Assembly (NCBI GenBank): GCA_963933035.1 | Contig: CAWVTP010000001.1 | Span: forward strand, 1-60,063 | Length of the DNA: 60,063 nt | Direction: 5' to 3' | Source: an uncultured Puniceicoccaceae bacterium | GTDB lineage: Bacteria; Verrucomicrobiota; Verrucomicrobiia; Opitutales; Coraliomargaritaceae | In this document: in pieces, positions 16,102 through 60,063 of the stretch | Layout of the letters: each line of letters begins with the position of its first letter | Numbering within the stretch: the stretch's first letter is position 1 | Position numbers and translations under genes: made by a program | The notes under the pieces: model-generated | What the model was told of the DNA's origin: nothing | Database searches by the model: none | The model's input: only the letters and a program-made list of their open reading frames with translations

Positions 16102-17325
16102 TCACGACAAAATGTCCGCTAGGGGGCGCACGCACACACCATCGACCAAACTGCAAACATGTATCTCATGCCGAAACTGCGGATACGCGCGTGGATATGC
16201 GCGATCAATAGTTTGCCTAAGAGGCTCGACAGCATCTTGCTCAACCAGCGCACCACTAGCGCCTTTATCTCCGCCACCTAGCATCCGTTCGCCTAAAACG
16301 CCCGGAACGGTACGCGCTAGATCACACATCGTTTCAAGCTCAGGTCCGCTAATTTGATACTCGTCTCGCAGCCCCAGACCATCCGCGCGAAAGTTTGCCC
16401 CCACTTGTGCAAAATCGCCCTGTTTCCAAGCTGCAATCGTAGAGTGAATTCTAGACTGCGCAGCGTACAGATAGCGCAGTAAGGGCACACAATCTGGCAT
16501 CTCTAATAGCAACATCTGCTCGGCTGCTCGATAATGCCTTTCGTCTTGAAAAAGCTCTAGAAGCGATCTGCCCAATTGCGCCTGCAGGTAGGCATTCATA
16601 GCGTCACATTGTTGACGGCGGACCTTGTAAGTCGAAACTTCTAGCCCTGCACGCTTAGTCCCAGTATCCATACAGACCACGCGAAAGCGATCAATATCGC
16701 CTCCAAATTCAAAGTGCTCAATATGCTCATTAATAGGATTAAAGTAGGTCCCCATGCCAGCCTTGGCAAAATAGATCATCACTTGATCCAGCTTCCCGCA
16801 AGGGGAGCCGATGTAGTCCACCTCCACCATCTGAGCCAAGTTCACAATATCCATTCCCGGCACCTCTCTATAGCCATTCAGCTCCAATATCGACTCAATC
16901 AAATTGAGCGATAGCGAGGCCGAACGCGACATGCCACCACCAGGAATATTTCCGAATACGATGGCATCCATACCTATCTGAATCTGATAGCCTTCACGCT
17001 TCAGTACGCTCACGGCCCCTTTGGGAAAACGCGCCCAACCAGATGCCAAAGGGTTCGCCATCGTCGCATCAGCTAATGAAAAATCCACGACGCCTTCTTC
17101 TGGCATATTTTCACTATAAATTCGAATTCTACCAGAAGTATTCGGCTTATATGCAACCCATATAAAGCGATCCGTCCCGACGCCAAATAATTCCAAATTA
17201 TTGTAATCGCCATGCTCAACTCCAAAACAAAAACGAGATGAGGTACGCCGAACCATGCCCTCACTAATATCCAAATTCAAGAGTCTTGCTTGCAAAGCAA
17301 AACGGTTAGCCACAACTGCGTCCAT
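16102..17325 (-). CDS. galK: GHMP kinase, galactokinase-like
   Basis: GNIPGGGMSRSASLS GHMP motif and a degenerate galactokinase signature FGVEHGDYNN. Last gene of the galT-galE-galK string. Confidence 0.75.
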   Translation of the reverse strand: MDAVVANRFALQARLLNLDISEGMVRRTSSRFCFGVEHGDYNNLELFGVGTDRFIWVAYKPNTSGRIRIYSENMPEEGVVDFSLADATMANPLASGWARFPKGAVSVLKREGYQIQIGMDAIVFGNIPGGGMSRSASLSLNLIESILELNGYREVPGMDIVNLAQMVEVDYIGSPCGKLDQVMIYFAKAGMGTYFNPINEHIEHFEFGGDIDRFRVVCMDTGTKRAGLEVSTYKVRRQQCDAMNAYLQAQLGRSLLELFQDERHYRAAEQMLLLEMPDCVPLLRYLYAAQSRIHSTIAAWKQGDFAQVGANFRADGLGLRDEYQISGPELETMCDLARTVPGVLGERMLGGGDKGASGALVEQDAVEPLRQTIDRAYPRAYPQFRHEIHVCSLVDGVCVRPLADILS

Positions 17326-20642: not shown

Positions 20643-21587
20643 TCAAATGAGCCCCTTGAGTAAAGCTGGAAGCCGTTCGATACAGCCAAGAATATGAGCG
20701 CGCGCGTAGTTGAGTTCTACCGGGTTCTCTCCAAAGAAAATAGACCATGCCGGCAGTTGATCCCAACTTTCATACTCAATGGCTTGCACTGTTTCAAAAG
20801 GTGCCTCACAACCACCATAACGCACAATCATATCAGCTAACTGGACGACGGCGGCCAATTGCCCTCCATTTTGTGAGTGTTCGGGTGCATACTGATGTAA
20901 CACCGCATCGACGATCGATTCCGGCATAGAATTCAGCTCAAGGTAGAGCGCACCCAACTGCGCATGATGCCATCCGTAGCTGGCTACTTCCGCCTGCGAG
21001 AAAGCTTCGCGCGTAAGTGCCTGCAATGCGACTCTCGATCGTAACTGATTCGGAAACTCACGAAACATTAACAATTTCCCTACGTCCTTCAACAGGCCCG
21101 CAATATAAAATTCATCGGAATCGGATGTCGTGGAGGCTAAGGTTGACAACTCCTTACTGAGGATCGCAACACCAATGCTGTGGCGCCAGAAATCGGTCCA
21201 ATTAATGTCTAAACCTCTTTGAACATCGCCACTCATTGCCTCAATATCGTCAATTACTTGAGTCGTCATGGCTAATTGACGAATTTGTTTCAGCCCTAAA
21301 TAAAAGATGGCCTCCTCGATACTGGTCACCCGCATCGATAAGCCAGAAAAAACCGAATTCACTAACCTGAGCAAGCGAGTTGTCAGCGACAAATCGCGAC
21401 TGATTACATCCGCAATTTCACTCACCGAACCACTAGCATCGGCTGTTAAGCGGTTTAGATTGTCATTGATTCGACTTAAGGAAGCAATCGGCCTGCAGTC
21501 TTGAATCTTTTTATACAGCGTATCAAAGTCGCTGATTTCACTGGCGCAAAAATTATACGCTAACTGATCTATAAGACTATTTACCAT
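20643..21587 (-). CDS. HDOD domain protein
   Basis: FWRHSIGVAILSKEL, AGLLKDVGKLLM and WHHAQLGALYL are typical of the HDOD (HD-related output domain) fold. Start overlaps the upstream stop by 11 nt. Confidence 0.75.
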   Translation of the reverse strand: MVNSLIDQLAYNFCASEISDFDTLYKKIQDCRPIASLSRINDNLNRLTADASGSVSEIADVISRDLSLTTRLLRLVNSVFSGLSMRVTSIEEAIFYLGLKQIRQLAMTTQVIDDIEAMSGDVQRGLDINWTDFWRHSIGVAILSKELSTLASTTSDSDEFYIAGLLKDVGKLLMFREFPNQLRSRVALQALTREAFSQAEVASYGWHHAQLGALYLELNSMPESIVDAVLHQYAPEHSQNGGQLAAVVQLADMIVRYGGCEAPFETVQAIEYESWDQLPAWSIFFGENPVELNYARAHILGCIERLPALLKGLI

Positions 21588-22272
21588 GTAAGTGTGATAA
21601 TTTCTCCTGAATTATAGTATCACACTCATTGATTTTACTTTGGGCAAGCTTCTTTCGATCATACAATAACTGCTTCTTGACATCCCATACGCGTTTAATG
21701 CGCTCGTTTCGATCCTGAAACTGGTCGCTAACACGGGCAACAACTGGGCTAAAACTTTGTTTAGAAGCATTTCCTCGGGGAGAAAACATCAAACCAGCCA
21801 CAAAGCACGCCATTCCAGCCACAACATAGACGAAAACTGGCCGATCGCTCACAATAAAACCAATATAAAGCATCAAAATCCCTACAAAATATAAAACTAA
21901 GTATAGATGCCCCCCGCGTTTGCCTGAGCTTTTAGAGCCCGGTTTTTTCATGGCAATAACCTGACGAAGTTCTGCCTCCATTTCGGATAATTTTTTTTCT
22001 GAATCAGCCAGCTCCTGCATAACTTCATCGTAAATCGCTTTTTCCTGTTCCAGCCGTTGATTCAAAAGCTCCACCTCTTGCTTAAGCTTTGCGTCTTCTT
22101 TAGCTCGAAAATCAGCAACCTTAACGCGTAAAGACTCATAATCCTTAGCATCCATTGCCAAGGCATAAGCATCCACCAAGGAACGCAAATTACTTGCTAT
22201 CAAATGCCCATCATTCGAACGCTCGAAATATTCAGGATGTTGTTGTAGAAATTTTTTTAATTCTTGGTTCAT
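21577..22272 (-). CDS. coiled-coil membrane protein with two TM helices
   Basis: About 115 aa of E/K/L-rich heptad-like sequence, then LYLVLYFVGILMLYIGFIV and VFVYVVAGMACFVAGLMF, then a ~70-aa charged tail. No family recognised. Confidence 0.6.
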   Translation of the reverse strand: MNQELKKFLQQHPEYFERSNDGHLIASNLRSLVDAYALAMDAKDYESLRVKVADFRAKEDAKLKQEVELLNQRLEQEKAIYDEVMQELADSEKKLSEMEAELRQVIAMKKPGSKSSGKRGGHLYLVLYFVGILMLYIGFIVSDRPVFVYVVAGMACFVAGLMFSPRGNASKQSFSPVVARVSDQFQDRNERIKRVWDVKKQLLYDRKKLAQSKINECDTIIQEKLSHLHGK

Positions 22273-22275
22273 TCT

Positions 22276-23595
22276 TCAGCGACCAAAGACCTCGTTGAGT
22301 ACCTTCTCGGAAAAAGGTTGAATCGGTGATAACTGGCTTAGTAAATCACGATGGCGTCGTGATGGGACTTGTTTACTTAATGCATGCAGCAACTCTATTT
22401 TATCCTTGTAGCCAGCATGGCATAAAGGCTTTCGTTTTTTAGCTTGATGCAATACATCCGCCCGCAATTTTGTATTTAAACGAACACTCCATTCATCTGT
22501 ACTTTTAGCTGTTTCATAAGCTCGGTCCATTAGTGTTGGATCTTGCTGCAGCCAATCAATCGCATCTTGAGCTTCGCCTTTACCAATCAAAAGCTGCAAA
22601 GCCTCACGAGAACATTGCGCCTGCATAGCTGCTGCATGGAGCCAGCGGCGTTGCTTAGCTGAAAACTGAGCCAAGGAATCTGCATGCCGCGACTGGCGCA
22701 GATTTGTTAAAGTCCCCATGAAATCATCTTGCGCTAATAAGGCTTTGATTCTGGCGGGGACACCCTCCGTTTCTTCATAGAGCAAATCCACTAGATCACG
22801 ATCTGTATGCCCCAGCTCACTCAACCACTCCTGACAATCGCTGTAGCTCAGCCTTAGCAGCTCGATCTGTCGAAGTGCCGCAGGATGCACCTGCCAACTA
22901 TCTGCAAGGTCTCCTTGCTCCCAAGCTAAAGTTCCAGTTTGCAAATAAACACTTCCTTTGATGACTGTCGACTGCTTGAGTGACTCAAAAGCTTTGTAAA
23001 GCCCCGCTCCAATCCAACGCTTAATATTTTCAGGATAATGTGCAAACTGATCAAAATAAAAAAGAATCCGTGGGCAGGCGTTAGCTCCCAGCATAAAATA
23101 ATCTTTCTGTAACAAATCAGTCAGATTCTGTGCTAATCTCTGTGCCAATTCAACCTCTTCGGAATGAGACAAGGTCTTTACCGCCAATACGTCCGTGTAG
23201 GCCGCCCCATCCTCTCCATACAACTCACTCGCAGATGGCTCCGTGATGCTCGCCGTTGAGAACAAACGACTATTGTCCGGCTGCACATCGACTCGCGACA
23301 TCTTTATGCCACCGGGCCTCAAGCGCTTGATCGATTCCGACAAAAGATTAGAAAATGCAATCGTAGACGAACTTTGAGGGATTCCTTTATAAGCGATTAT
23401 AATGGTTTCGCCAACCCCAATTAGCTGGTGACGAATCAAATTTGTAAAATGCTCACACAATGCTGTTTTACCCACCCCCGTAATTCCGTGCACCAAAATA
23501 ACAGGAGAAAAATTAGGATTGATCTCATTGAATGTCTCTTCTTGCAAACGATCTAAGGCCAACAAACGACCGTATAATTGATTGTTGGACTTCAT
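22276..23595 (-). CDS. STAND/AAA_16-like P-loop NTPase (439 aa)
   Basis: Walker A GITGVGKT (nt 23464-23487), Walker-B-like RILFYFDQF, and helical-module patterns IELLRLSYSDCQEWL and EETEGVPARIKALL. No recognisable repeat sensor domain. Confidence 0.65.
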   Translation of the reverse strand: MKSNNQLYGRLLALDRLQEETFNEINPNFSPVILVHGITGVGKTALCEHFTNLIRHQLIGVGETIIIAYKGIPQSSSTIAFSNLLSESIKRLRPGGIKMSRVDVQPDNSRLFSTASITEPSASELYGEDGAAYTDVLAVKTLSHSEEVELAQRLAQNLTDLLQKDYFMLGANACPRILFYFDQFAHYPENIKRWIGAGLYKAFESLKQSTVIKGSVYLQTGTLAWEQGDLADSWQVHPAALRQIELLRLSYSDCQEWLSELGHTDRDLVDLLYEETEGVPARIKALLAQDDFMGTLTNLRQSRHADSLAQFSAKQRRWLHAAAMQAQCSREALQLLIGKGEAQDAIDWLQQDPTLMDRAYETAKSTDEWSVRLNTKLRADVLHQAKKRKPLCHAGYKDKIELLHALSKQVPSRRHRDLLSQLSPIQPFSEKVLNEVFGR

Positions 23596-49309: not shown

Positions 49310-50989
49310 CTAGCTAGGGATCGCCGCAGATTCTGCCAGTAAGACTTCGGCATGCGCGCGCGCAGAGGCGGAATGTCGATCCCCCAGCATGCGTGCCAAC
49401 TCCAGCTTGCGTGCCTCGGCATCCTCCTCTAGCGCCTGCATGCTCACCACCGTTTGCTCCTGCTGCATCTCTTTGCTCACCAGAACATGAGCAGTCGCCT
49501 GCGCCGCAACTTGGGGCAAGTGCGTCACACAGAACACCTGATGTTTGGCCGACAAACGCAGCAGCTCCGCGCCCACCGCGCGCCCCACTTCGCCGCCCAC
49601 ATTGGCATCCACCTCATCAAAGACCAAAATAGGGGTGGCATCAGCGTCAGCCAACACCGTCTTGAGCGCCAGCATCACCCGCGCCGTCTCGCCACTGGAG
49701 GCAATTTTATTGAGCGGCTGCATGGTATGCCCAGCATTGGAGGAAAAATACATCTGACATTGACTCGAACCCGCTTCGGAGAGCGTCTGCAATGCGCTAA
49801 CTTGAATCTCAAATTTAGCATATTTGAAACCCAGTGAGCGCAAAAGTTTCACTACTTGCTGGGACAGGAATTCAGCCGCTTGCTCACGCGCCTGGGTGAT
49901 GGCCTTGGCCTCGGACCACAGGCTCGCCTCCAACTGTTTGGCCTGTGCACGCTTTTCGGCCACAATCCCCTCAAGATCCCCCTGCAAGGCTAGACTGCGC
50001 GCCAGCTCCTCACGCTTGCTCAAAACGGCCGCCACACTGCCCCCATATTTGCGCCGCAATTCTTGCCACAGATTCATGTGCTCTTTAAGCTGCTCAATCA
50101 ACTCCGGTTCAAATTCGAATTGCCCCGACAGACGCTGCAACTCATCCCCCAAATCCTGTAATTCGATGGCCGCACTCTGCAAGCGAGCATCGATGGCCTC
50201 AAAGTCTGGATCCATCTGGACCAGTTCGTTGACTGATCCCTGCAGACGGTCCACTTGCTGAGTCAAACCAGCATCTCCCAGCAATGAATCCGCACAGTGC
50301 GCACTGAGTTGGGCTAAAGATTCCGCCTGCGAACAACGACGAAAATCGCGCTCTAGGCGCTCAATGCTGTCCTCACAAGGCGCCAACAAATCGATCCGAT
50401 CCAATTGTGCCTGATAGAAAGCGATGGTATCCTCATCCAAGCGCTCCCCCTGCTCCAATTCACTAATTTCTTGCACTTGATCACGCCACTGGGCATAGCG
50501 CTGCTGATAAGCGCTGAGTGCTGCGCTTTGTTCGGCATAAGCATCTAACAAGCGCAGTTGATTGCGTTCCACAAATAACTTTTGCGGTTCATGCGGACCA
50601 TGAAAATCGATCCACTGCTCACCCAGTGCCTGCAGTTGACTCAGCGTCGCCAACTGTCCATTGACCCAGATCTTCGGCACCTTGCTTTGATGCAGCGTGC
50701 GACGCAGTAGCAGCACCCCCTCCTCGCAGAGCGGCAGTTCCAACTGGGCCAGCTGCCGGTCGATGCGCTCAACGTTGGCAAAATACAGCGCGGCATCCAG
50801 CGACAATTGATCGGCCCCCTCGCGAATCAGGCGCTTGTTTGCACGCGCGCCCGCCAACAAACCCAGCGCCCCCAGGAGCACGCTTTTACCAGCTCCCGTC
50901 TCACCGGTCAGTGCCGTCAACCCAGCAGAAAAATCGAGTGTCACCTGCTCCAATAAAGCAAAATTCTGAATCTGTAAGTACTGTAGCAT
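49310..50989 (-). CDS. recN: DNA repair protein RecN
   Basis: LQIQNFAL, GETGAGKS Walker A, long coiled coil and C-terminal FDEVDANVGG. Start at ATG 50989. Confidence 0.93.
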   Translation of the reverse strand: MLQYLQIQNFALLEQVTLDFSAGLTALTGETGAGKSVLLGALGLLAGARANKRLIREGADQLSLDAALYFANVERIDRQLAQLELPLCEEGVLLLRRTLHQSKVPKIWVNGQLATLSQLQALGEQWIDFHGPHEPQKLFVERNQLRLLDAYAEQSAALSAYQQRYAQWRDQVQEISELEQGERLDEDTIAFYQAQLDRIDLLAPCEDSIERLERDFRRCSQAESLAQLSAHCADSLLGDAGLTQQVDRLQGSVNELVQMDPDFEAIDARLQSAAIELQDLGDELQRLSGQFEFEPELIEQLKEHMNLWQELRRKYGGSVAAVLSKREELARSLALQGDLEGIVAEKRAQAKQLEASLWSEAKAITQAREQAAEFLSQQVVKLLRSLGFKYAKFEIQVSALQTLSEAGSSQCQMYFSSNAGHTMQPLNKIASSGETARVMLALKTVLADADATPILVFDEVDANVGGEVGRAVGAELLRLSAKHQVFCVTHLPQVAAQATAHVLVSKEMQQEQTVVSMQALEEDAEARKLELARMLGDRHSASARAHAEVLLAESAAIPS

Positions 50990-51206
50990 GCCAGCAGCAT
51001 CATTAAACAAATCACACAGGATTCAAACAAGAATCGAGCTTTTGTGAGAAAAGGCATTCGCCAGTTGGCTGGGAGCACATGTCAAGCCTCCGACATCCAA
51101 CAGTACCTTTGTTTGGGTGCTTTAGCCTTGCATGAAAGGGGCAATCCACTACACAGTTAGCAAAAATTGTAGCCGACAATCTTGCGACCGCCGCCACAAT
51201 CGATCG

Positions 51207-51626
51207 ATGCCTCGTAGAAAACGCACAGCCCTAGAGCCCGAAGATTTTGCGATGACGCCGATGATCGACATGGTCTTCCTGCTATTGGTCTTTTTTATGA
51301 CAGTGAGTACCCTTGCCCAAGCCGACAAAAAGCTCGACTTGGACTTGGCCGAGTCGAACAGCAGCCAAGTCCCCAAACAATTAGAAGATCGCGGGGCCCT
51401 CTCCATCGATGAGACGGGCAAAATTTACCTCGGACAACGCTTGGTCTCACTCAAAGAAATGCAGCGGACGATCAAAGGGGAACTGCAAGCCAACCCTGAG
51501 CTTAAAATTCAAATCCGCGCTGATGCCCAAACCCCTTATCGCTCAATCGAGCCAGTCTTGAATGCCTGCTCAGAAGTCGGTGCCTACTCGATCATCTATT
51601 CCACCTATCAAGTCCGCAAGCCATGA
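51207..51626 (+). CDS. exbD: ExbD/TolR family protein
   Basis: TPMIDMVFLLLVFFM TM motif. Start at ATG 51207. Confidence 0.85.
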   Translation: MPRRKRTALEPEDFAMTPMIDMVFLLLVFFMTVSTLAQADKKLDLDLAESNSSQVPKQLEDRGALSIDETGKIYLGQRLVSLKEMQRTIKGELQANPELKIQIRADAQTPYRSIEPVLNACSEVGAYSIIYSTYQVRKP

Positions 51627-52066
51627 GTACCCGGCGCCGCAAACCAGCCATCCCGCGCGCGCAGCTACAGATCGCGCCCATGATAGACGTGGTCTTCCTA
51701 CTACTCATTTACTTCATGGTGAGTGCTTCGCTGGCTCGTCAAGAGGCCGACCTCAGCTTCCAACTGCCCGGCTCCTTGATCCAAAGCACACCACTCGACA
51801 TCCCCGACGAGCCCATCATTGTCATTGCCGCAGATGGCCAAGTCTCGGTCAACGACTACCCCTACGATTCCCCAGATGCAGCGACCTTACCGCAACTCAC
51901 CCATATGCTCAAACGCTATCACCACAGTTGCCTAGGCAACCAAGTGACGGCATCCGTCACACTAGCGCCCGCAGCCGCCGTGCGGCAACAAAGGATCGTC
52001 GAGGTGATGGATGCCTGCGCCCAAGCCGGCATCTCCGGCTTGAGCTTTGCCAGTGATCGCAAGTAA
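51623..52066 (+). CDS. exbD: ExbD/TolR family protein (second copy)
   Basis: APMIDVVFLLLIYFM TM motif. 4-nt overlap with the first exbD. Confidence 0.85.
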   Translation: MSTRRRKPAIPRAQLQIAPMIDVVFLLLIYFMVSASLARQEADLSFQLPGSLIQSTPLDIPDEPIIVIAADGQVSVNDYPYDSPDAATLPQLTHMLKRYHHSCLGNQVTASVTLAPAAAVRQQRIVEVMDACAQAGISGLSFASDRK

Positions 52067-52067
52067 G

Positions 52068-52286
52068 CCGGCCTAGCCGGCGACCGCTAATGCTCGATGT
52101 TGGAAAACGATATTAAACATTACCGTTAAAACAGTATTTCTATTAGCATAGATGAGCGCACATAAGCGGTGTCCAGCTGTGCTGGATTGACGGCATTTTT
52201 GTCTATTTTGGACGTTTTTTTTTGAGCGCAATAAATTTCATTAAATTTCTCCTATTTAGTACCTTATGGTAAAAGCATGAAAACTT
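52068..52286 (+). repeat. left copy of a ~219-bp direct repeat
   Basis: 52068-52214 aligns to 55245-55391 without indels, with 6 mismatches in 147 nt by my count. The next ~70 nt are more diverged, and both copies end in AAAAGCATGAAAACTT. Confidence 0.9.
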
Positions 52287-52329
52287 GGACAGGCCCCTTC
52301 AGTACTCGTTCTTTTTGGGCATGGTTCAC

Positions 52330-53427
52330 TTAATCTTTTGATTCGTTGTGCAGCGCTGCATGCATGTAGAAATAAGCTTCGGCGTTGATGGATTTTATTC
52401 CGTCGAGCCAGCTTAGATCGCGGCCGTTGAGGCTGGCGGCTTTGAGTGCTTCGAGTTGCGCTGGGGTTTGCTCGTAGCGGACGAGGTCTTTGCCATTTTT
52501 TATAGCCGTCGTGAGGTAAGCTGTTCTGGCTGCGAGGGTGCGCTGGTCGTTTGGTTTAAAGTTTGGCCATGTGAGGTGCCCCTTAAGTTTTCCAAATCCA
52601 TCCAACAACAAATCTGTATCTTTGTAGGCCTGTTGTATCTTAGGCTTGGTGGCGATGATACCGATGGAGGCATTGAATGTGTCTTCGAGGGATTCATCTC
52701 TGCTAACTTTGCGGCCGAGTGTTTCTTCGCGGTAGGCGGCCTCTTGCTCCTGCACTTCGTTGTAGGTCTTGGCAACGGCTGCGAAATCTTCGGCATGCTC
52801 GAAGAGAATGCCCACATCGAAGAGCTGTTTGGCGACCTGCATGACTTCGCCGACGGTGCCATCGTCTTTCCTCAGCGGCACTCCGGTGGTTGTCGGCGCA
52901 AAGGCCGTGAGCTTGTCGCCAAGGAGGCTTTCAATTGTGGGCAGCTCGACTTCGATCTCTTCTTCGGGTGTTAAGAAGGATGTTTGGATTGGTTTCTTAG
53001 TGCAGCCGTGGACGATGTCTTGCTCCTGCACCACATCGAGTAGCACCGCACTCTTGCTTCTGGTGTCGAAGGGAGAGTTGAAGAAGAATTTGAAATGCCG
53101 CCGCTGTGGAAGGCCCCGTGCGCCGCGATCATCTTCTTCGTGGCCGATGAAGGGAGTTGTCTGCCCGATTTGGGCGACGACGCGCTCCAGTTCGGCATCT
53201 CCGGCGGGGCTGACTATATCGATGTCAATCGAGAGCCGCTGGATCTTTGGTAGGTGGAGCATCAAGCTGGTGCCACCCTTGAAGATGAAGGGTAGCCCGC
53301 TGCGGCTGAGCTGCCCAAGCAGGGTCAGGGCGTAGATTGACTTTTCCAGCAGGGCTGGATCGCAGTTTCCCAAGCCCTTTCGCTGCTGGTTAATCCAGCC
53401 TTTCTCGTAAACTTCAGGGTGAAACAT
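52330..53427 (-). CDS. nucleotidyltransferase AbiEii/AbiGii toxin family (DUF1814)
   Basis: FKGGTSLMLHL...RLSIDIDIV nucleotidyltransferase motif; 365 aa. Follows an AbiEi-like gene. Confidence 0.85.
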   Translation of the reverse strand: MFHPEVYEKGWINQQRKGLGNCDPALLEKSIYALTLLGQLSRSGLPFIFKGGTSLMLHLPKIQRLSIDIDIVSPAGDAELERVVAQIGQTTPFIGHEEDDRGARGLPQRRHFKFFFNSPFDTRSKSAVLLDVVQEQDIVHGCTKKPIQTSFLTPEEEIEVELPTIESLLGDKLTAFAPTTTGVPLRKDDGTVGEVMQVAKQLFDVGILFEHAEDFAAVAKTYNEVQEQEAAYREETLGRKVSRDESLEDTFNASIGIIATKPKIQQAYKDTDLLLDGFGKLKGHLTWPNFKPNDQRTLAARTAYLTTAIKNGKDLVRYEQTPAQLEALKAASLNGRDLSWLDGIKSINAEAYFYMHAALHNESKD

Positions 53428-53468
53428 GGGGCATATTTATTGAGTTAACTATTGTCACTATAGCGCGT

Positions 53469-54188
53469 CTAGTGACGTTGGTTAACTGATAAAAATTCTT
53501 CGATTTTGACCTTCCTACTCTCTGCATAGCGTTGCATTCCTGATACTTGCATTAGATTTGAATGAATTGATTTCTTGGCGGCGTCTCGCGCCTCGCTGCT
53601 GTCCATGAGGCCGCAGTGCGGGTTTTCCGACAGTAGATCGACGAGCATTTGCTCGATGGGCGCTTGCCGCTTCTCCGCAGCAGGCTGACGGCTGAGCGTC
53701 GGGCGAAGCACGACCATCTTCTCGCCGGGGCGGACCACTTGACGGGCTGCGCTGGGTGGTGGATCGATAGCGACCTCCCAACCGCTATCGCGAAGCGTGT
53801 CGCCGATGGTTTCGAGCGCATCCTTGGGTGCATTGAGGAAATGAACGGGCTGGGCCAGCAGATGGTGCATCCACGGATTAAGTTGGGTGGTGCTCCAGAC
53901 GGAAAAATCCAGCAAGGGAAAAGCCTTCTCCACGGCGCGGATCAACTTCGCAACCTGTTTCGAATCAATCTGAGCAGGTTCGCTGAGACGGGAATACCAG
54001 TCCCGCCCTGCATCGTGAATGATGCCTCGATGCACCGCCTCATTGATGTATTGCTTGAGGGAGCCGTCAGTGATTTCAAGCTCGGCTTCATTGACAGCCG
54101 TCTGGATGGCCGAGAAGCGGAAATAGCTGTGCGCCTCCTTGAGCTTGGGAAGCAGGTTTTCGAAGAATCTATCCTTGTTTGAAGACAT
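53469..54188 (-). CDS. AbiEi-like antitoxin / transcriptional regulator
   Basis: 239 aa. N-terminal wHTH-like segment ending LKQYINEAVHRGIIHDAGRDWYS (resembles the AbiEi ..G.l.r..rG.Y pattern). Lies 41 nt upstream of the AbiEii gene. Confidence 0.6.
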   Translation of the reverse strand: MSSNKDRFFENLLPKLKEAHSYFRFSAIQTAVNEAELEITDGSLKQYINEAVHRGIIHDAGRDWYSRLSEPAQIDSKQVAKLIRAVEKAFPLLDFSVWSTTQLNPWMHHLLAQPVHFLNAPKDALETIGDTLRDSGWEVAIDPPPSAARQVVRPGEKMVVLRPTLSRQPAAEKRQAPIEQMLVDLLSENPHCGLMDSSEARDAAKKSIHSNLMQVSGMQRYAESRKVKIEEFLSVNQRH

Positions 54189-54213
54189 CGTGCTAGTACG
54201 ATATTTACCAGTG

Positions 54214-54754
54214 TTATGATTCTGAATTTAACAGAGCCTCTTCAATCAGGTTCTTCGCGTTAACGGTAAGCCGTTTCGTTTCAAAGATCTCTAAGATACG
54301 TTTACAATGCTCAGCCAAGTGGAATGCACAAGCGTATAATTCCAAGTCCTCAGCCTTTAGGCCCGATCCAGTTTTGGCTGCGGCGAAACTCACCTGGAGT
54401 CTTGGTGCATTCACCACCTCGGACATCTTTGAGCAGGATCTCATGCAGCTCTTTGATCAGACGAGTGGAAATCGGAAGCTCAGCAATACGCTGGAGGCCG
54501 TATTCGAGAGCTCGGACGTAGTTGGCCACTTCGCGCACGTCGGAAACAGGCTCGTCATCTTCGTCTTCTTGCTCGAAGAGTGCGAGTTGCCCCATATCCG
54601 CATGGGTGTCTTCAATGCGCGAACTCAGGATCGCCTCGCGTCGTAAATAAGGCCGTATCAGTAGGTGCGGATTTGGGAGAAGTTGACCTGCGCCGGAGAG
54701 TTCGCCCAATGCCTGATCGGCCTCGGAAATCAGCCGAATCAAGTTCCAGTCCAA
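54214..54754 (-). pseudogene. fic: decayed Fic-family gene (Fic_N part intact, frameshift, HPFxxGNGR core missing)
   Basis: ORF 54350..54754 encodes a Fic_N-like segment (LLPNPHLLIRPYLRREAILSSRIEDT...PGEFRRSQNWIG) and then stops. A second frame (54214..54444) adds only ~50 aa. No HPFxxGNGR motif is present in any frame. Confidence 0.7.
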
Positions 54755-55244
54755 GCTTAGATCTGGCGGGAGCGGAGCAGGTGTATAAGAAAATAGCCTT
54801 CAAGTGCCTTATGGCAGTTTCCTGGGCTTTTCGCAGTAAATTGATCAGGGCTCATCGCGGTTTAGAGGCATTTGGCGTAAATAAACGGGTTTTTATTTTT
54901 GTTTAATTGATTTCGCAATAATAAAGAGAGCCTTGTTTCTGCGAAAAGGAGCTAATCGATGTTGGGCTAAATGACTTTCCAGCGAATAGTGAAGCGTGTT
55001 TCGGATTCGGTATTTTTGTGTGAGCTTGGTTTCGCGAAATCGATGACATCGGTGGTAGCTTTTTGCCTTCCATTGCGACGGCATAATCAATGTGAGCAAA
55101 TCGTTGATTTCGGTGCAGTACTCTCACAGAGTAGGATTTCGCTTTTAAGTCGTCCAGGAGTAACTGAATCTTCTCAGTCTCATCTAATTCTCGTAGCATG
55201 AGCACAAGCATACCTAGGGGCAGGTTCTTATGCCCCATTGAGAA

Positions 55245-55459
55245 CCGGTCTGGCCGGCGACCGCTGATGCTCGATGTTGGAAAACGATATTAAACATTAC
55301 CGTTAAAACAGTATTTTTATTAGCATAGATGAGCGCACATAAGCGCTGTCCAGCTGTGCTGGATTGACGGCAGTTTTGTCTATTTTGGACGATTTTCTGA
55401 ACGCAATGTATTTGATAATATACTCATTTTTAGTTTCTTGTGGAAAAGCATGAAAACTT
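55245..55459 (+). repeat. right copy of the ~219-bp direct repeat, immediately upstream of hsdR
   Basis: See the left copy. Ends 98 nt before the hsdR start codon. Confidence 0.9.
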
Positions 55460-55557
55460 TTCTGTAGTCCTATTGTCGCTTAAATCCTGGCTCGTAATTA
55501 CTCCGCAAAGGATAACATTAACCTTTACGAAAATCTAACGGCCCATAAAAAGGAGGC

Positions 55558-58500
55558 GTGTTATTCAACGAAGATTCCAGAGTTAAAATCCCGGCCCTGC
55601 TACACCTAACACGCTTAGGATACCGCTACCTCTCACTGAAAGGCGCTGACTGGGACCCTAGCTGCAACATCTTTCCCGGGCTATTCAAAGAGGCACTCAG
55701 ACGTATCAACCCGGATCCGAATCCCGATGAGATTGAACGCACACTCCGCGAGATTAACCTCTCACTAGATAATGAGGACCTGGGCCGCGCTTTCTACAAG
55801 CGCCTGCTGGAGAAGCCTGGCCTCCGACTCATCGACTTTGATAACTTCGATAACAACAGCTTCCACGTTGTCACCGAGCTCCCCTGCATCAACGAAGACG
55901 AAGAGTTCCGCCCAGACATCACACTGTTGATCAACGGCATGCCGCTCGTCTTCATCGAGGTCAAAAAGCCCAACAATCGCGAAGGCATCCTCGCAGAGCG
56001 CAAACGGATAAACACCCGCTTTCAGAATCCCAAATTCCGCCGCTTCATCAACATCACCCAGCTGATGGTCTTCTCCAATAATATGGAGTATGACGACAGC
56101 TCGCCGGAACCACTCGAAGGTGCATTCTACGCAACGACCGCCCAGAAGGAGCCCACGTTCAACTACTTCCGCGAAGAGCCTGACTCTGCCCTGCCTGCAC
56201 TTCAGAACCTGCATCCGGATGCCGAGGCTGGGATTCTTTGCGATAACAATCTTCAGTCGATCCAGCACACCGCAGAGTTCGCCACCAATAAGGATCCGAA
56301 CTCACCGACAAATCGCATCTGTACCTCGCTATTCAGCCGAGAGCGCCTCGCCTTTTTGCTTCGCTACGGCTTCGCCTATGTTCGCGCCGAGCATGGCTTG
56401 AAAAAACACATCATGCGCTACCCGCAGCTGTTTGCGACCAAGGCGATTGAAGCTCATCTGGAGGCTGATAAACGCAGCGGTATCATTTGGCACACCCAAG
56501 GCAGTGGCAAGACCGCCCTCGCCTACTACAACGTCAAGCACCTAAAGGACTACTACACAAAACGGAAGGTCATTCCTAAGTTCTACTTCATAGTCGACCG
56601 CCTTGATTTGCTCATTCAGGCCGCCCGCGAATTCCGCAGTCGTGGCCTGACGGTGCATGAGGTCAACTCTCGCGAAGAGTTTGCAAATGACATCCGATCC
56701 ACCGCCGCGATTCACAACAATCACGGCCAAATCGAAATCACGGTCGTCAATATACAGAAATTCGAGAACGACCCCAAGGTCGCCCGCAGCAACGATTATA
56801 ACATCGACCTCCAGCGCGTCTACTTCCTCGACGAAGTTCATCGCAGCTACAATCCCAAGGGCAGCTTCCTGGCCAACCTCAAGGAGTCCGACCCCAACGC
56901 CATCCGCATCGGCCTCACCGGCACACCGCTCCTTGGTGACGCCTACAACTCCAAATCCCTCTTCGGCGGTTATATCCACAAATACTATTACAACGCCTCA
57001 ATCAAAGACGGCTACACCCTCCGCCTTATCCGCGAAGATATTGAGACTGAATACAAGCTGACACTCGCCAAAACCTTAGAGGAAATCAATCTGCTCAAGG
57101 GCAGCGGCAATCGTGAGTTCGTTTACGCACACCCGAAATTCGTCGAGCCCATGCTCGATTACATTATTAAAGATTTTGAGAATGCCCGCCTCACTCAAAA
57201 CGACACCAGTATCGGCGCGATGGTCATCTGCGATTCCGCAGCCCAAGCCAAGGAGATGGCCAAAATCTTCGAGGCCAAATACATGCCGAAAAGTGCTCAC
57301 ATCGATAAGCCGTTACCATTTATTGCTCCGGAAGATCTTAAAGCGGCTGAAGGCAGTCCGGGCGCTTACAACTTGCAGCAGCAGGCCAAACGAGCAGTCG
57401 ACTCTTACGCATTGATCCTGCACGACGTCGGTACCAAGCAAGAGCGCAAGGATAAGGTCGAAGACTTTAAGGAAGGCAAAATCGACATCCTATTTGTCTT
57501 CAACATGCTTCTCACCGGCTTCGATGCGCCGCGTCTCAAGAAGCTCTACCTCGGCCGCGTCATAAAAGCGCACAACCTCCTGCAGGCGCTCACCCGTGTC
57601 AATCGCACCTACAAAGACTTCCGCTACGGCACCATCGTTGACTTCGCTGACATCGAATCCGAGTTCGAAAAGACCAACCAAGCCTATTTTGACGAGCTTC
57701 AGTCCGAACTGGGCGACGAGCTGGAGAGCTACTCCGATCTCTTCAAAACCGAAGCCGAGATCGAAACCGAGATCGAGCAGATCAAGGACACTCTCTGGCA
57801 CTACGACACCCAAAATGCGGAGGCTTTCTCCCAGCAGATTACACAAATTCAAGACCGCGCCCAGATGCTGGAGATCGTCAAAGCCCTCCAAGGCGCACGC
57901 GAACTCTACAACCTCATACGCCAGTCCGGACGCTATGAACTGCTCGAGAAGCTCGATTTTAAAAAGCTCAACACCCTTGCTCGCGTAGCAAATGAACGAC
58001 TTTCGCTGATCAACCAGAAGATCGCCCTCGAAGACGGCCACGATAATACTAATATCCTCAACGTCGCCCTCGAAGACGTGCTCTTCACCTTCCGCAAGGT
58101 CAACGAAGAGGAGCTCCGCATCGCCGACGAACTCAAAGACCAGCTCCGCAAGACCCGCGAAACCCTCGGCGGCAACTTCGACCCGCGCGATCCCGAATTC
58201 ATTTCCCTCAAGGAAGAACTCGAGCGCCTCTTCAAAAAGAAGAACCTCAGTGAAGTCACCAAAAAGGAGATGGCGTCCAACATCGAAGCGCTCAACTCCC
58301 TCGAAGCCAAAGCCCGCGAGCTCAACCGCGAAAACGAACTGCTTCGCGCCAAATACGCCAACGACGCCAAATACGCACGCCTGCACAAGCGTCTACTGGA
58401 AAAATACCCGCTCACGGACAAAGAACGCAAACTCTGCGAAGCTCTCAATGCGCTCAAAGCGCACATCGACGCCAAAGTTAAGCAGAACGCCCAACTCCTC

Positions 58501-58659
58501 GAAAACGACGGCTACGCCCAGAGCGAACTCCTCCGCCTCTCTGTCGAGCAGCTCAAAAAAGCCCACGACTTCGACTTCAACGCCACCGACCTCAAGGCCA
58601 TCAATCGCCTGATCATGAAAGAATACCTCGACGAGTTTAACGGAAAGGTACCCGCGTAG
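55558..58659 (+). CDS. hsdR: type I restriction endonuclease subunit R
   Basis: N-terminal PD-(D/E)xK nuclease (RPDITLLINGMPLVFIEVKK) and SF2 helicase motifs (HTQGSGKTALAY, FLDEVHRS, GLTGTP, QALTRVNR), with a long helical C-terminus. GTG start sits 1 nt after AGGAGG, so the exact start is uncertain. Confidence 0.92.
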   Translation: MLFNEDSRVKIPALLHLTRLGYRYLSLKGADWDPSCNIFPGLFKEALRRINPDPNPDEIERTLREINLSLDNEDLGRAFYKRLLEKPGLRLIDFDNFDNNSFHVVTELPCINEDEEFRPDITLLINGMPLVFIEVKKPNNREGILAERKRINTRFQNPKFRRFINITQLMVFSNNMEYDDSSPEPLEGAFYATTAQKEPTFNYFREEPDSALPALQNLHPDAEAGILCDNNLQSIQHTAEFATNKDPNSPTNRICTSLFSRERLAFLLRYGFAYVRAEHGLKKHIMRYPQLFATKAIEAHLEADKRSGIIWHTQGSGKTALAYYNVKHLKDYYTKRKVIPKFYFIVDRLDLLIQAAREFRSRGLTVHEVNSREEFANDIRSTAAIHNNHGQIEITVVNIQKFENDPKVARSNDYNIDLQRVYFLDEVHRSYNPKGSFLANLKESDPNAIRIGLTGTPLLGDAYNSKSLFGGYIHKYYYNASIKDGYTLRLIREDIETEYKLTLAKTLEEINLLKGSGNREFVYAHPKFVEPMLDYIIKDFENARLTQNDTSIGAMVICDSAAQAKEMAKIFEAKYMPKSAHIDKPLPFIAPEDLKAAEGSPGAYNLQQQAKRAVDSYALILHDVGTKQERKDKVEDFKEGKIDILFVFNMLLTGFDAPRLKKLYLGRVIKAHNLLQALTRVNRTYKDFRYGTIVDFADIESEFEKTNQAYFDELQSELGDELESYSDLFKTEAEIETEIEQIKDTLWHYDTQNAEAFSQQITQIQDRAQMLEIVKALQGARELYNLIRQSGRYELLEKLDFKKLNTLARVANERLSLINQKIALEDGHDNTNILNVALEDVLFTFRKVNEEELRIADELKDQLRKTRETLGGNFDPRDPEFISLKEELERLFKKKNLSEVTKKEMASNIEALNSLEAKARELNRENELLRAKYANDAKYARLHKRLLEKYPLTDKERKLCEALNALKAHIDAKVKQNAQLLENDGYAQSELLRLSVEQLKKAHDFDFNATDLKAINRLIMKEYLDEFNGKVPA

Positions 58660-58978
58660 TTCGACGGAGCTTGCCACGAGTGATGCCACTGTTCAGCTTC
58701 ATGCCCATCATTCGCGCCATGCACCTTGTTCCACCCATCCGAAAAATGCACATATTAGGCGCGTTTTTTAATTTCACCGTGAGCGAATCAGCGAAAAATA
58801 GTAAAAAGCACCCAAGTAATTTGTCAGACATGTCATACATCTCGGTATTGACAAATCATACTTTTTCCTACTTTGTATATCCAACAACACCCCTCACGCC
58901 TATCCACGATGCGCACCAGAGGGGTTACTCGTATCTAAGGGGCACGTTCCCGATTTTTGGTAGAAAGCGAAGTGCGCA

Positions 58979-59887
58979 TTGAGTAAACAACTCATTGACT
59001 ATCATGCTCAGTTAGAGCGCCTCAAAGCTCGAGGCTTACAGGTCCGCGATGAGCCTTTCGCGCTACATTGCCTTGCGCATCACAACGACTACAGGCTGTC
59101 CGCATATAGTTTTCCGTTCACCATTCAGGGCGATCCGGATACCTTTCTGCCTGGAACAGGCTTTGAGCAAATATGGGAACTCTACAACTTCGACTGCGAA
59201 CTTCGCAAATTGATCATCGAAGCCTGCAAGCACGTCGAGATTTCCGTTCGCTCCCGCTGGGCCTATGAAGTGGGGCGCCAACTAGGGCCGCAAGCCTACG
59301 AAGACCCCACGAACTTCCCGCGTTTCAGAGACCATGCGGGTTCACTGCAAAAGCTTGACGATGAAATAACCCGCTCACGCGAGACTTTCATCACACATTA
59401 TCAGACCAATTACCAAACCGCTCGTCCCGAGGTCTGGGTCATGATTGAAGTTGCTTCCTTTGGTACCATTTCAAAACTCCTCAAGTTTACCCATCCGCCT
59501 CGCTTACGTCAGGACATCGCAGACAGCTACCAGCTTGACGAGAAAACACTCTGCTCACTGTTCCACCACCTGAGTATTCTCCGTAACACAGCTGCACATC
59601 ACAGCCGCATCTGGAACCGCAAATTCACTTTTCAGGTTCAATTACCGCGCAGAAAACCCGCAGGGCTTTATCCCAACTTTTATGAGACAGCAGCCGATAG
59701 AGAGAGCAGTACACGCAAAATCTACAATACCCTGGTGCTACTCATTCACTGCCTACAAATCATCGAGCCACGCGGCGACTGGCCACAGCGCTTGCAGGCA
59801 CACTTGCAAACCCTTCCGCCAAATCGACTGCCTGACATGGGCTTTCCTGCCGACTGGCAACAACGCCCCATCTGGGAAAACCTTTAA
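58979..59887 (+). CDS. Abi_2 (AbiD/AbiF-like) abortive-infection protein with HEPN Rx4H motif
   Basis: N-terminal QLERLKARGLQV..E..A...L...NDYRLSAY pattern of the Abi_2 family. RNTAAH (R202-H207, nt 59582-59599) matches the HEPN Rx4-6H motif. TTG start. Confidence 0.8.
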   Translation: MSKQLIDYHAQLERLKARGLQVRDEPFALHCLAHHNDYRLSAYSFPFTIQGDPDTFLPGTGFEQIWELYNFDCELRKLIIEACKHVEISVRSRWAYEVGRQLGPQAYEDPTNFPRFRDHAGSLQKLDDEITRSRETFITHYQTNYQTARPEVWVMIEVASFGTISKLLKFTHPPRLRQDIADSYQLDEKTLCSLFHHLSILRNTAAHHSRIWNRKFTFQVQLPRRKPAGLYPNFYETAADRESSTRKIYNTLVLLIHCLQIIEPRGDWPQRLQAHLQTLPPNRLPDMGFPADWQQRPIWENL

Positions 59888-60063
59888 ATCGCCACCACGC
59901 ACTCTGTGCTTAAACAAATTTCTTAATTCTAGTTTCCTAATTCTTAATTCCACACCGTGACCACACTCCAATTTCAAACCGACGCCAAAGCGCTGATCGA
60001 CGATCTCAAGCCCATCTTTAACAATTCGCTTCTAAAACAAGCAAAAAATTGATTAATTTTGCT

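Follow-up and report, generated by a model that had tools for sequence, protein, structure and literature searches.

What are two long direct repeats doing around a group of abortive-infection genes that has no recombinase of its own? The question is raised by a stretch of DNA from an uncultured Puniceicoccaceae bacterium (NCBI GenBank assembly GCA_963933035.1, contig CAWVTP010000001.1, positions 1 to 60,063 of the forward strand), which we analysed in full and refer to as the window. Here, repeats of about 219 bp at 52068-52286 and 55245-55459 bracket a 3-kb segment between the genes exbD2 and hsdR, and a preliminary description of the window compared them to the attL and attR ends of a single imported segment. 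We find instead that the repeats belong to a dispersed family of ~240-bp same-direction units in marine Opitutales (Puniceicoccaceae-like Verrucomicrobiota), and that the cargo of the arrays in which these units occur consists mostly of toxin-antitoxin, abortive-infection and restriction genes. In the explanation we favour, the ~240-bp unit would be a dispersed junction element that punctuates arrays of such cassettes at a few chromosomal hot spots. This junction-repeat family, which organises defence and toxin-antitoxin cassette arrays, is previously undescribed. Full-text literature searches returned no description of a unit-type repeat in Verrucomicrobia, and the RptR operators of a type I restriction island are a different repeat of 9 bp.

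A dispersed family of co-oriented units

The two window copies lie in direct orientation, and BLAST within the window finds no third copy in the 60 kb. A repeat search matches 52068-52219 to 55245-55396 without gaps at 95% identity over 152 nt, and BLAST aligns the left copy with the right at 89% identity over 219 nt (E = 4e-77). Six mismatches fall in the first 147 nt, at repeat positions 5, 8, 22, 73, 102 and 129, and the next is at 148; a diverged tail then precedes the last 16 nt, AAAAGCATGAAAACTT, which are identical in both copies. The preliminary description of the two copies is confirmed to the base. The TAA stop codon of exbD2 ends at 52066, leaving a single base before the left copy, and the GTG with which hsdR starts follows 55459 after a gap of 98 nt. 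Comparison with other copies reveals that the unit is longer than this repeat pair, with a ATTGAGAA start and ~26 nt beyond AAAACTT. The ATTGAGAA start occupies 55237-55244 in the right copy and is replaced by the exbD2 stop region in the left copy. The left unit covers 52068-52312 on the plus strand (profile match 52068-52284, nhmmer E = 4e-66, plus the ~26-nt tail, TTGGACAGGCCCCTTCAGTACTCGTTC), and the right unit covers 55237-55485 on the same strand, consisting of the ATTGAGAA start, a profile match at 55245-55457 and a diverged tail.

An nhmmer profile that started from the two window copies and went through one iteration identifies 36 unit copies across 17 non-redundant related metagenomic loci (handles such as L001 denote such contigs below), and it has zero matches in 192 kb of control loci from related genomes. 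Within each locus every copy points the same way, with no orientation exception among the 36. The repeat had been taken for a diverged copy of the region upstream of hsdR, a view that does not survive the finding of a multi-copy family at other loci and in other Opitutales genomes. The family nonetheless looks narrow and rare. For example, an exact 20-nt pattern from the conserved centre has one true match, in an Opitutales metagenome-assembled genome (L006), among 185,579 species genomes, and an exact 24-nt core pattern is found in 5 contigs of two JGI metagenomes (L007-L011). A translated-unit profile, used to search for spuriously called open reading frames (ORFs), recovers 19 proteins among 5.8 billion non-redundant proteins. 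Neither 50,697 phage records, 72,556 plasmid records nor IMG/VR contain a match, and we reject a phage or plasmid origin of the unit on this basis. Stretches identical to the window are present in TARA and other marine assemblies. The RecN protein of the window shares 95% identity with one metagenomic protein and no more than 61% with those of named relatives (Opitutales, Puniceicoccaceae, Coraliomargarita, Lentimonas), which assigns the window to an uncultured marine lineage of Opitutales (Verrucomicrobiota).

A full unit measures ~236-250 bp and has defined, reproducible ends. It begins with (C)ATTGAGAA, followed by a small GC hairpin, CCGGC-CTA-GCCGG, which lies at 52068-52080 (plus strand) in the left unit. 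The left arm then carries three GCTAATA-like repeats, one every 10-11 nt. An AT-rich spacer follows, and after it come three inverted copies (TATAAGCG, AGATGAGCG and ACATAAGCG) that are again phased by 10-11 nt. Unit positions ~15-105 form an imperfect palindrome, judged from reverse-strand profile self-matches and from single-strand DNA folds (z = -3 to -4), and its paired positions are almost all invariant and lack covariation support. In the left unit this palindrome spans ~90 nt at 52082-52170 on the plus strand, with a left arm (GACCGCTAAT...), the AT-rich spacer and the inverted arm TATTAGCA / AGATGAGCG / ACATAAGCG. There is also a near-invariant block, AAGCGGTGTCCAGC-NNN-GCTGGATTG, in which the central 3 nt alone vary; the arms of the palindrome that it holds are invariant in 20 distinct full copies. 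The block reads AAGCGGTGTCCAGC-TGT-GCTGGATTG at 52164-52189 of the left unit, where the palindrome TCCAGC-NNN-GCTGGA occupies 52172-52186, and its counterpart in the right unit is at 55341-55366, with the palindrome at 55349-55363 (both on the plus strand). The right arm is less conserved, with a mean pairwise identity of 71%, and holds one further phased repeat, GCGTAATA.

Two types of tail terminate the units. One has the form GCATGAAAAC-TTGGACAGACCCCTT...GGGAC, and the other, GCATGGACCTCTTTCAGGCCCC, is joined directly to the ATTGAGAA of the next unit. Because the latter tail runs straight into the following start, units can stand head to tail without cargo, and such empty tandems, with periods of 216-236 nt, are present in L007, L008/L010 and L031. 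Subterminal hairpins lie at both ends of the unit. The pair closing the first hairpin shows a compensatory change from A-T to G-C (A/G before CCGG, T/C after GCCGG), and RNAalifold detects compensatory change in 2 of 13-25 pairs, both in this first small hairpin. The left arm of both window copies has a form specific to their lineage, GCTCGATGTTGGAAAACGATA, and a distant genome whose RecN is 61% identical contains a unit-like element of the same layout with GCTTAA/TTAAGC arms, both arms having changed in step. This distant element (L017:9110-9440, and the same in L018) is single and is flanked by imperfect direct repeats of ~12-20 nt, in stretches containing AGTTGTTTGTTG and GATTCGATTC; judged from these flanks, it looks like a small insertion with a duplicated target sequence.

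The conservation of hairpins at both ends, of phased repeats and of an invariant palindrome suggests that a specific protein also binds the unit. The placement of the hairpins would in addition suit a transcriptional insulator, since on the minus strand the unit tail reads as a hairpin followed by a T-rich run, and on the plus strand the start hairpin comes directly after the upstream genes. Insulating neighbouring cassettes and focusing recombination are both possible roles.

The unit cannot be filed with integrons, with miniature inverted-repeat transposable elements (MITEs) or with tRNA-targeting islands. An attC site has complementary R'' (RYYYAAC) and R' (GTTRRRY) boxes 40-150 nt apart, and there are zero such boxes on either strand of seven representative unit regions (10 copies) and their flanks, which led us to reject this class. 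A MITE with inverted terminal repeats was rejected as well, as the best inverted alignments between the first and last 60 nt of seven units score 5-8 against a shuffle mean of ~6.8. The resemblance between CATTGAGAAC, at the start, and CATGAAAAC, close to the end, does not reach significance as a terminal direct repeat. No Rfam family reaches its gathering score on the units of the window, or E <= 1 in L010 and L009, and covariation does not extend beyond the first small hairpin, so that a structured non-coding RNA was likewise rejected. A hidden small protein gene was discarded because reading frames are broken and inconsistent among copies. No tRNA or tmRNA lies within or overlaps the units, which also have no significant similarity to the tmRNA of L013; derivation from a tRNA, a tmRNA or the 3' end of a target gene was rejected, and the unit starts after the exbD2 stop codon. 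The proposal that the repeat contains the hsdR promoter, and that its left copy would fire antisense into abiEii, gains no support, in that neither copy has a plus-strand sigma-70-like site and the six promoter-like matches in the region are no excess over shuffled sequence (3.9 +/- 1.9). What the arrays do share with integrons is a series of co-oriented repeats that separate accessory cassettes (36 copies, with toxin-antitoxin and defence cargo). With defence hot spots they share the same core flanks around different cargo in close strains, and with regions of homologous exchange they share crossovers in common sequence without a fixed site.

Between units we find AbiE, Fic, HipBA, VapBC, ParE, AAA ATPase or hsdR/AbiD cassettes, or nothing, and the arrays are anchored at exbD2/uvrB, radD, tRNA-Pro and tmRNA. 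In L010, six copies within 5.2 kb separate an AAA_14/DUF4143 ATPase, VapBC and HipBA. The longer series in L031 runs from a ParE/YafQ toxin pair through three tandem empty units, a 289-amino-acid ORF, an internally deleted unit, Fic and a unit to a broken hipA, a partial (half) unit, another unit and HsdR; the whole array stands upstream of radD and is followed by a larger island with LmuB, an SLFN-like ATPase and RhuM. L023 has the simpler order Fic, unit, radD, and an intact 378-amino-acid Fic cassette lies beside units in both L023 and L031. Among the loci with radD, the region upstream of this gene is filled in L008, L023, L031 and L032; in L024 and L034-L042 it is empty. Another site lies beside tRNA-Pro, where L011 and L007 represent the two sides and the TARA scaffold L033 joins them across about two units. 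At the tmRNA site, L013 carries the tmRNA with a second copy of its 3' end, followed by a GIY-YIG gene, a unit and an ORF111 (the orphan ORF of the window) with a 94-nt deletion, and then a unit identical to the right copy of the window, hsdR and AbiD. A unit identical to this right copy also precedes hsdR in L014.

Variation and breakpoints at the exbD2 site

The exbD2 gene (51623-52066, plus strand; Pfam ExbD) is the conserved left anchor of a variable array, and it adjoins the first unit in all strains examined. What follows is hypervariable, with at least four arrangements among close strains, which bears out the earlier suggestion of a hot spot of defence cassette exchange. Three arrangements come from contigs with identical ExbD1, and the L015 type was reached via a strain with a 95%-identical RecN; alternative cargo between repeats, which the preliminary description had proposed looking for, is thus present in strains with identical ExbD1 or ExbD2 and in the one with the 95%-identical RecN. 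The window arrangement is found in several independent assemblies, and we would describe it as exbD2, unit, AbiE and broken fic, ORF111 module, unit and hsdR-AbiD block, with the arrays of other strains continuing to uvrB. L001 has the same AbiE-fic-ORF111 segment, then a different truncated unit (75-79% identical) and then uvrB. L015 and L030 have unit positions 1-144 followed by unrelated sequence, and L027 has unit positions 1-77, a degraded ATPase gene, a unit, a helix-turn-helix gene and a unit.

These comparisons alter the picture of the locus in two respects. The fixed right neighbour is uvrB and not hsdR, as had been supposed, and the hsdR-AbiD block is movable cargo that occurs with its own repeat downstream of tmRNA in L013. 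Moreover, the 3-kb interval is not one cassette but a composite, because the ORF111 segment also occurs separately with units on both sides. A search for single-copy empty sites (exbD-repeat-hsdR or exbD-repeat-uvrB) found none, and no ancestral empty site can be read in more distant genomes, in which recN does not adjoin exbD.

Informative single-nucleotide differences place one exchange with some precision. The window is L001-like up to ~55196 and L013-like from ~55214, and the switch falls in a 19-nt identical stretch within ORF111, ~30-50 nt to the left of the unit. A crossover within the 147-nt core had been predicted; the change between the window and the uvrB arrangement is located in this cargo interval instead, which makes it a homologous crossover that took place in duplicated cargo and outside the repeat. 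An assembly chimera at the ORF111-hsdR join is unlikely, because at the switch the identity between the L001-like and L013-like sequences extends over 19 nt only, too short a stretch for an assembler to make the join by mistake, and the join recurs in independent assemblies. L015 and L030 share both flanks but differ in a ~30-nt patch of the left arm of the unit, the signature of gene conversion.

Other breaks in similarity occur at unit position 0 (window against L001), at ~20 (L027) and at ~145-148 (L015, and the left against the right copy of the window). Truncated units begin or end at positions 16, 36, 77, 78, 97-102, 144, ~160 and ~168. A unit of L031 has lost its interior from position 37 to 171, and the family consensus has TAATAC at both ends of the deleted segment, which we read as microhomology.

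Possible routes of cassette exchange

In the explanation we favour, the units, together with any duplicated cargo, would supply portable homology for the recombination by which cargo enters, leaves and is rearranged. The enzymes would most likely be those of the general homologous recombination and gene conversion machinery of the cell, and not a cassette-borne integrase. That exchange takes place between junction units and duplicated cargo, mostly by the host machinery for homologous recombination, is in our judgment about as probable as its opposite. The units would then be the substrate of exchange and RecA-type recombination would do the work. Scattered breakpoints and the lineage-specific homogenisation of units fit general homologous recombination and gene conversion, and we count the left-arm variant shared by both window copies, and the internal deletion in L031, as signs of the former. 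The absence of a recombinase in cis, noted in the preliminary description, also stands: no recombinase domain is found in the cargo or in the window ORFs scanned against Pfam. More broadly, there is no recombinase, integrase or transposase in those ORFs or in the flanks of L001, L007, L008, L011, L013, L031, L032 and L033, and no intI at the complete L001 array (exbD2 to uvrB), in the window or in the other array flanks examined.

Several observations nevertheless weigh against this explanation. Cargo-free tandem units are hard to produce in this way, because recombination between flanking units leaves one hybrid unit. The ends of the units are sharp and reproducible, and homologous recombination alone leaves the strong retention of hairpins, phased repeats and palindrome unexplained. 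Apparent breakpoints that fall at unit edges carry no information, since a crossover within near-identical units leaves no visible trace. No empty site or excised circle was observed in the metagenomic contigs, and all of the evidence comes from short contigs of this kind, which tend to break at repeats. The cargo-free tandems and the conserved architecture leave room for a site-specific system.

In such a system, the main rival to the explanation above, the units would be the recombination sites of a dedicated, integron-like cassette apparatus, and site-specific exchange would excise and insert the cassettes. The unit would be a composite site of ~240 bp, resembling a lambda-type attP or a cer/psi-type site, in which accessory arms carry putative binding repeats (three direct, three inverted and the additional GCGTAATA) around a core that can be read as TCCAGC-NNN-GCTGGA or as GTCCAGC-TGTGCTG-GATTGAC. 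It is possible, but we think it doubtful, that marine Opitutales carry a cassette system of this type at several chromosomal loci, with a recombinase or single-strand transposase encoded elsewhere. Discrete unit ends, empty tandems and strict co-orientation within loci would all be accounted for, as would the invariant palindrome arms around a variable centre and the phasing of the putative binding repeats by 10-11 nt in both orientations. Half-units that extend from 1 to ~150-168 or over ~97-215 have only the central block in common, as would attL and attR, and two independent similarity breaks fall at 145-148, just 3' of the near-invariant block. The arrays beside tRNA-Pro and tmRNA, and a toxin-antitoxin-rich cargo like that of chromosomal integrons, point in the same direction. 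However, the flanks examined encode no recombinase, even at both ends of the complete L001 array, the truncation points given above are scattered, and breakpoints are also found at unit position 0, at ~20 and within cargo. Furthermore, the terminal unit on the exbD side is full length, whereas an attL-type end should miss one arm.

Alternatively, the unit might itself be a small, non-autonomous element whose mobility depends on a transposase encoded at another place, such as a single-strand enzyme of the IS200/IS605 or IS91 type (insertion sequence families) that recognises subterminal hairpins. Units would then land preferentially next to earlier copies, defence and toxin-antitoxin genes would gather in the same permissive intergenic spots, and homology would be incidental. 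We consider this unlikely, although the defined ends, the subterminal hairpins at both ends, the head-to-tail copies without cargo, the occurrence at unrelated loci (exbD2, radD, tRNA-Pro, tmRNA) and the direct repeat of ~12-20 nt around the single unit-like element of L017 are all as a mobile element would have them. Terminal inverted repeats and a significant terminal direct repeat are lacking, the flanks examined contain no transposase, and units were not seen away from variable cargo or array ends. The copy number also looks low, given the 19 proteins, five contigs and one species genome recovered by the searches described above. The original proposal, in which the repeats mark the attL and attR ends of one imported 3-kb island that recombined with the region upstream of hsdR, accommodates direct repeats that bracket accessory genes and are near-identical over their first 147 nt. 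It is nonetheless highly improbable, since the same unit family is present at many other places, inside other arrays, and hsdR is found elsewhere together with its unit. The interval is composite, the AbiE segment of L001 precedes a different truncated unit and then uvrB, and no integrase domain is encoded among the cargo or flanking genes.

The arrays can be compared with several known systems. Defence hot spots and 'minimal mobile elements' between core genes are exchanged by homologous recombination; the minimal mobile element concept comes from Neisseria, and hot spots are known from the literature on E. coli and Pseudomonas. The arrays resemble these in their anchors (exbD2/uvrB and radD), strain-variable cargo, lack of a recombinase in cis and crossovers in shared sequence, but differ in having a dedicated conserved unit between every cassette, common to unrelated loci and lineages. 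In the tycheposons of Prochlorococcus, integrative elements and satellites stand in tandem, with partial tRNA repeats on their flanks. Here again a marine bacterium carries recombinase-less cargo modules in tandem with direct repeats between them, some at tRNA or tmRNA genes; however, our units are not derived from tRNA or tmRNA, measure ~240 bp and contain internal repeats like binding sites, and no element with a tyrosine recombinase or replicase is seen nearby. Complex recombination sites with accessory arms are known from lambda attP (~240 bp) and from the cer and psi sites of the Xer system. The similar length and the phased short repeats in both orientations around a short palindromic core are a likeness of architecture only, and crossovers in the units are not confined to the core. 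The pdif sites of Acinetobacter are 28 bp long and alternate in orientation. They too bound small modules, often toxin-antitoxin cassettes, and their recombinase is supplied in trans, but our units are ~240 bp, all co-oriented and chromosomal.

Where attC sites cluster without an integrase, the clusters are termed CALINs (Cury et al. 2016, PMC4889954). As in CALINs and sedentary chromosomal integrons (PMC4889954), similar co-oriented repeats separate short, toxin-antitoxin-rich cassettes, a long imperfect palindrome forms part of the repeat, and, as in CALINs, no integrase lies beside the arrays. Unlike those sites, the units lack RYYYAAC/GTTRRRY boxes and no IntI is seen; they are ~240 bp long and palindromic in the left half only, and their cassettes are often multi-gene, lie in either orientation and reach more than 4.5 kb, or are missing between tandem units. 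In function the arrays would be closest to CALINs and to defence hot spots flanked by core genes, and in architecture the unit most resembles lambda attP or cer.

How defence islands are assembled is an open question, and beyond integrons and islands that bear an integrase the usual answer is an unexplained hot spot. The hot spots described here show visible conserved DNA between every cassette, common to unrelated loci and to different lineages, which makes the family more interesting than a single attL/attR pair would have been. The unit is a searchable marker for such arrays and for new defence cargo in metagenomes, and a candidate protein-binding site. In a poorly studied marine phylum, the units also offer a natural substrate for asking if a cassette system needs anything more than general recombination. 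Should a dedicated enzyme prove to be involved, it would represent a recombination system that is new and might be useful as a tool.

Gene content of the window and additional observations

Pfam and PADLOC confirm that the genes between the two window units are those named in the preliminary description and that all lie on the minus strand. The toxin gene abiEii, a nucleotidyltransferase, occupies 52330-53427 (Pfam AbiEii; PADLOC AbiEii, E = 4e-94), and the antitoxin and regulator gene abiEi follows at 53469-54188 (Pfam DUF6577; PADLOC AbiEi, E = 4e-29). The truncated fic gene at 54350-54754 retains the Fic_N domain only (Pfam Fic_N; PADLOC SoFic, profile positions 24-149 of 361). Next comes the ORF111 segment at 54831-55236, the separately occurring module, whose ORF of 111 codons (54903-55238) has no Pfam, NCBIfam or PADLOC match. 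A vestigial unit suspected by eye between the fic fragment and ORF111 is unsupported by nhmmer and by a shuffle test. GC content is 0.50-0.57 in cargo and flanks alike, so that a foreign base composition of the cargo was rejected, and the units alone are AT-richer (0.44-0.48).

To the right of the second unit, on the plus strand, hsdR (55558-58659) encodes the R subunit of a type I restriction enzyme (Pfam HSDR_N, ResIII and T1R_D3; PADLOC REase_I), with no hsdM or hsdS in view within the window. An abiF RNA motif at 58890-58925 (Rfam RF03085) scores 37.4 bits, the gathering score being 37. An Abi_2/AbiD gene at 58979-59887 (Pfam Abi_2; PADLOC AbiD, E = 3e-65) starts shortly after it; both are on the plus strand, and the motif is also present in L013. 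All AbiD-bearing contigs, which come from several assemblies, end 176-240 nt past AbiD (window 59888-60063 and the ends of L012-L014), and this suggests repeated or variable sequence there, perhaps hsdS/hsdM or another unit. The remaining genes of the window are housekeeping genes, amid which ORFs of 407, 231 and 439 amino acids (16102-17325, 21577-22272 and 22276-23595) have no Pfam match at E <= 1e-8. The two exbD genes stand without exbB or tonB alongside.

Some features of the array sites deserve mention in their own right. Short 3'-end duplicates of tmRNA (L013:3251-3400) and tRNA-Pro (L033:6260-6620) lie ~100 nt downstream of the respective genes, beside the unit arrays; they are scars of the kind that integrase-type elements typically leave there. 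DNA-repair genes stand next to two of the four array sites, with recN and uvrB flanking the exbD pair (window 49310-52066, L001:14257-16311) and radD at the other (L008:6268-8004), which could be chance. Beside the radD-proximal units of L032, an ORF of 1177 amino acids (L032:1382-4915) without a precomputed Pfam match or a PADLOC match is a candidate for unknown defence cargo.

Finally, a second conserved non-coding repeat of ~280 nt, 75-88% identical among its copies and unrelated to the unit, occurs at L027:3478-3780, L011:6698-6983, L031:1010-1269 and L007:4929-5197. It contains a hairpin, CACATTTCTAAT-GCGATG-ATTAGAAATGTG, and has no Rfam match in L027 or L011. One copy lies in the array cargo of a strain of the window species (L027), and three are in Coraliomargarita-like contigs, where the repeat is situated beside pheA, beside tRNA-Leu and inside a defence island.

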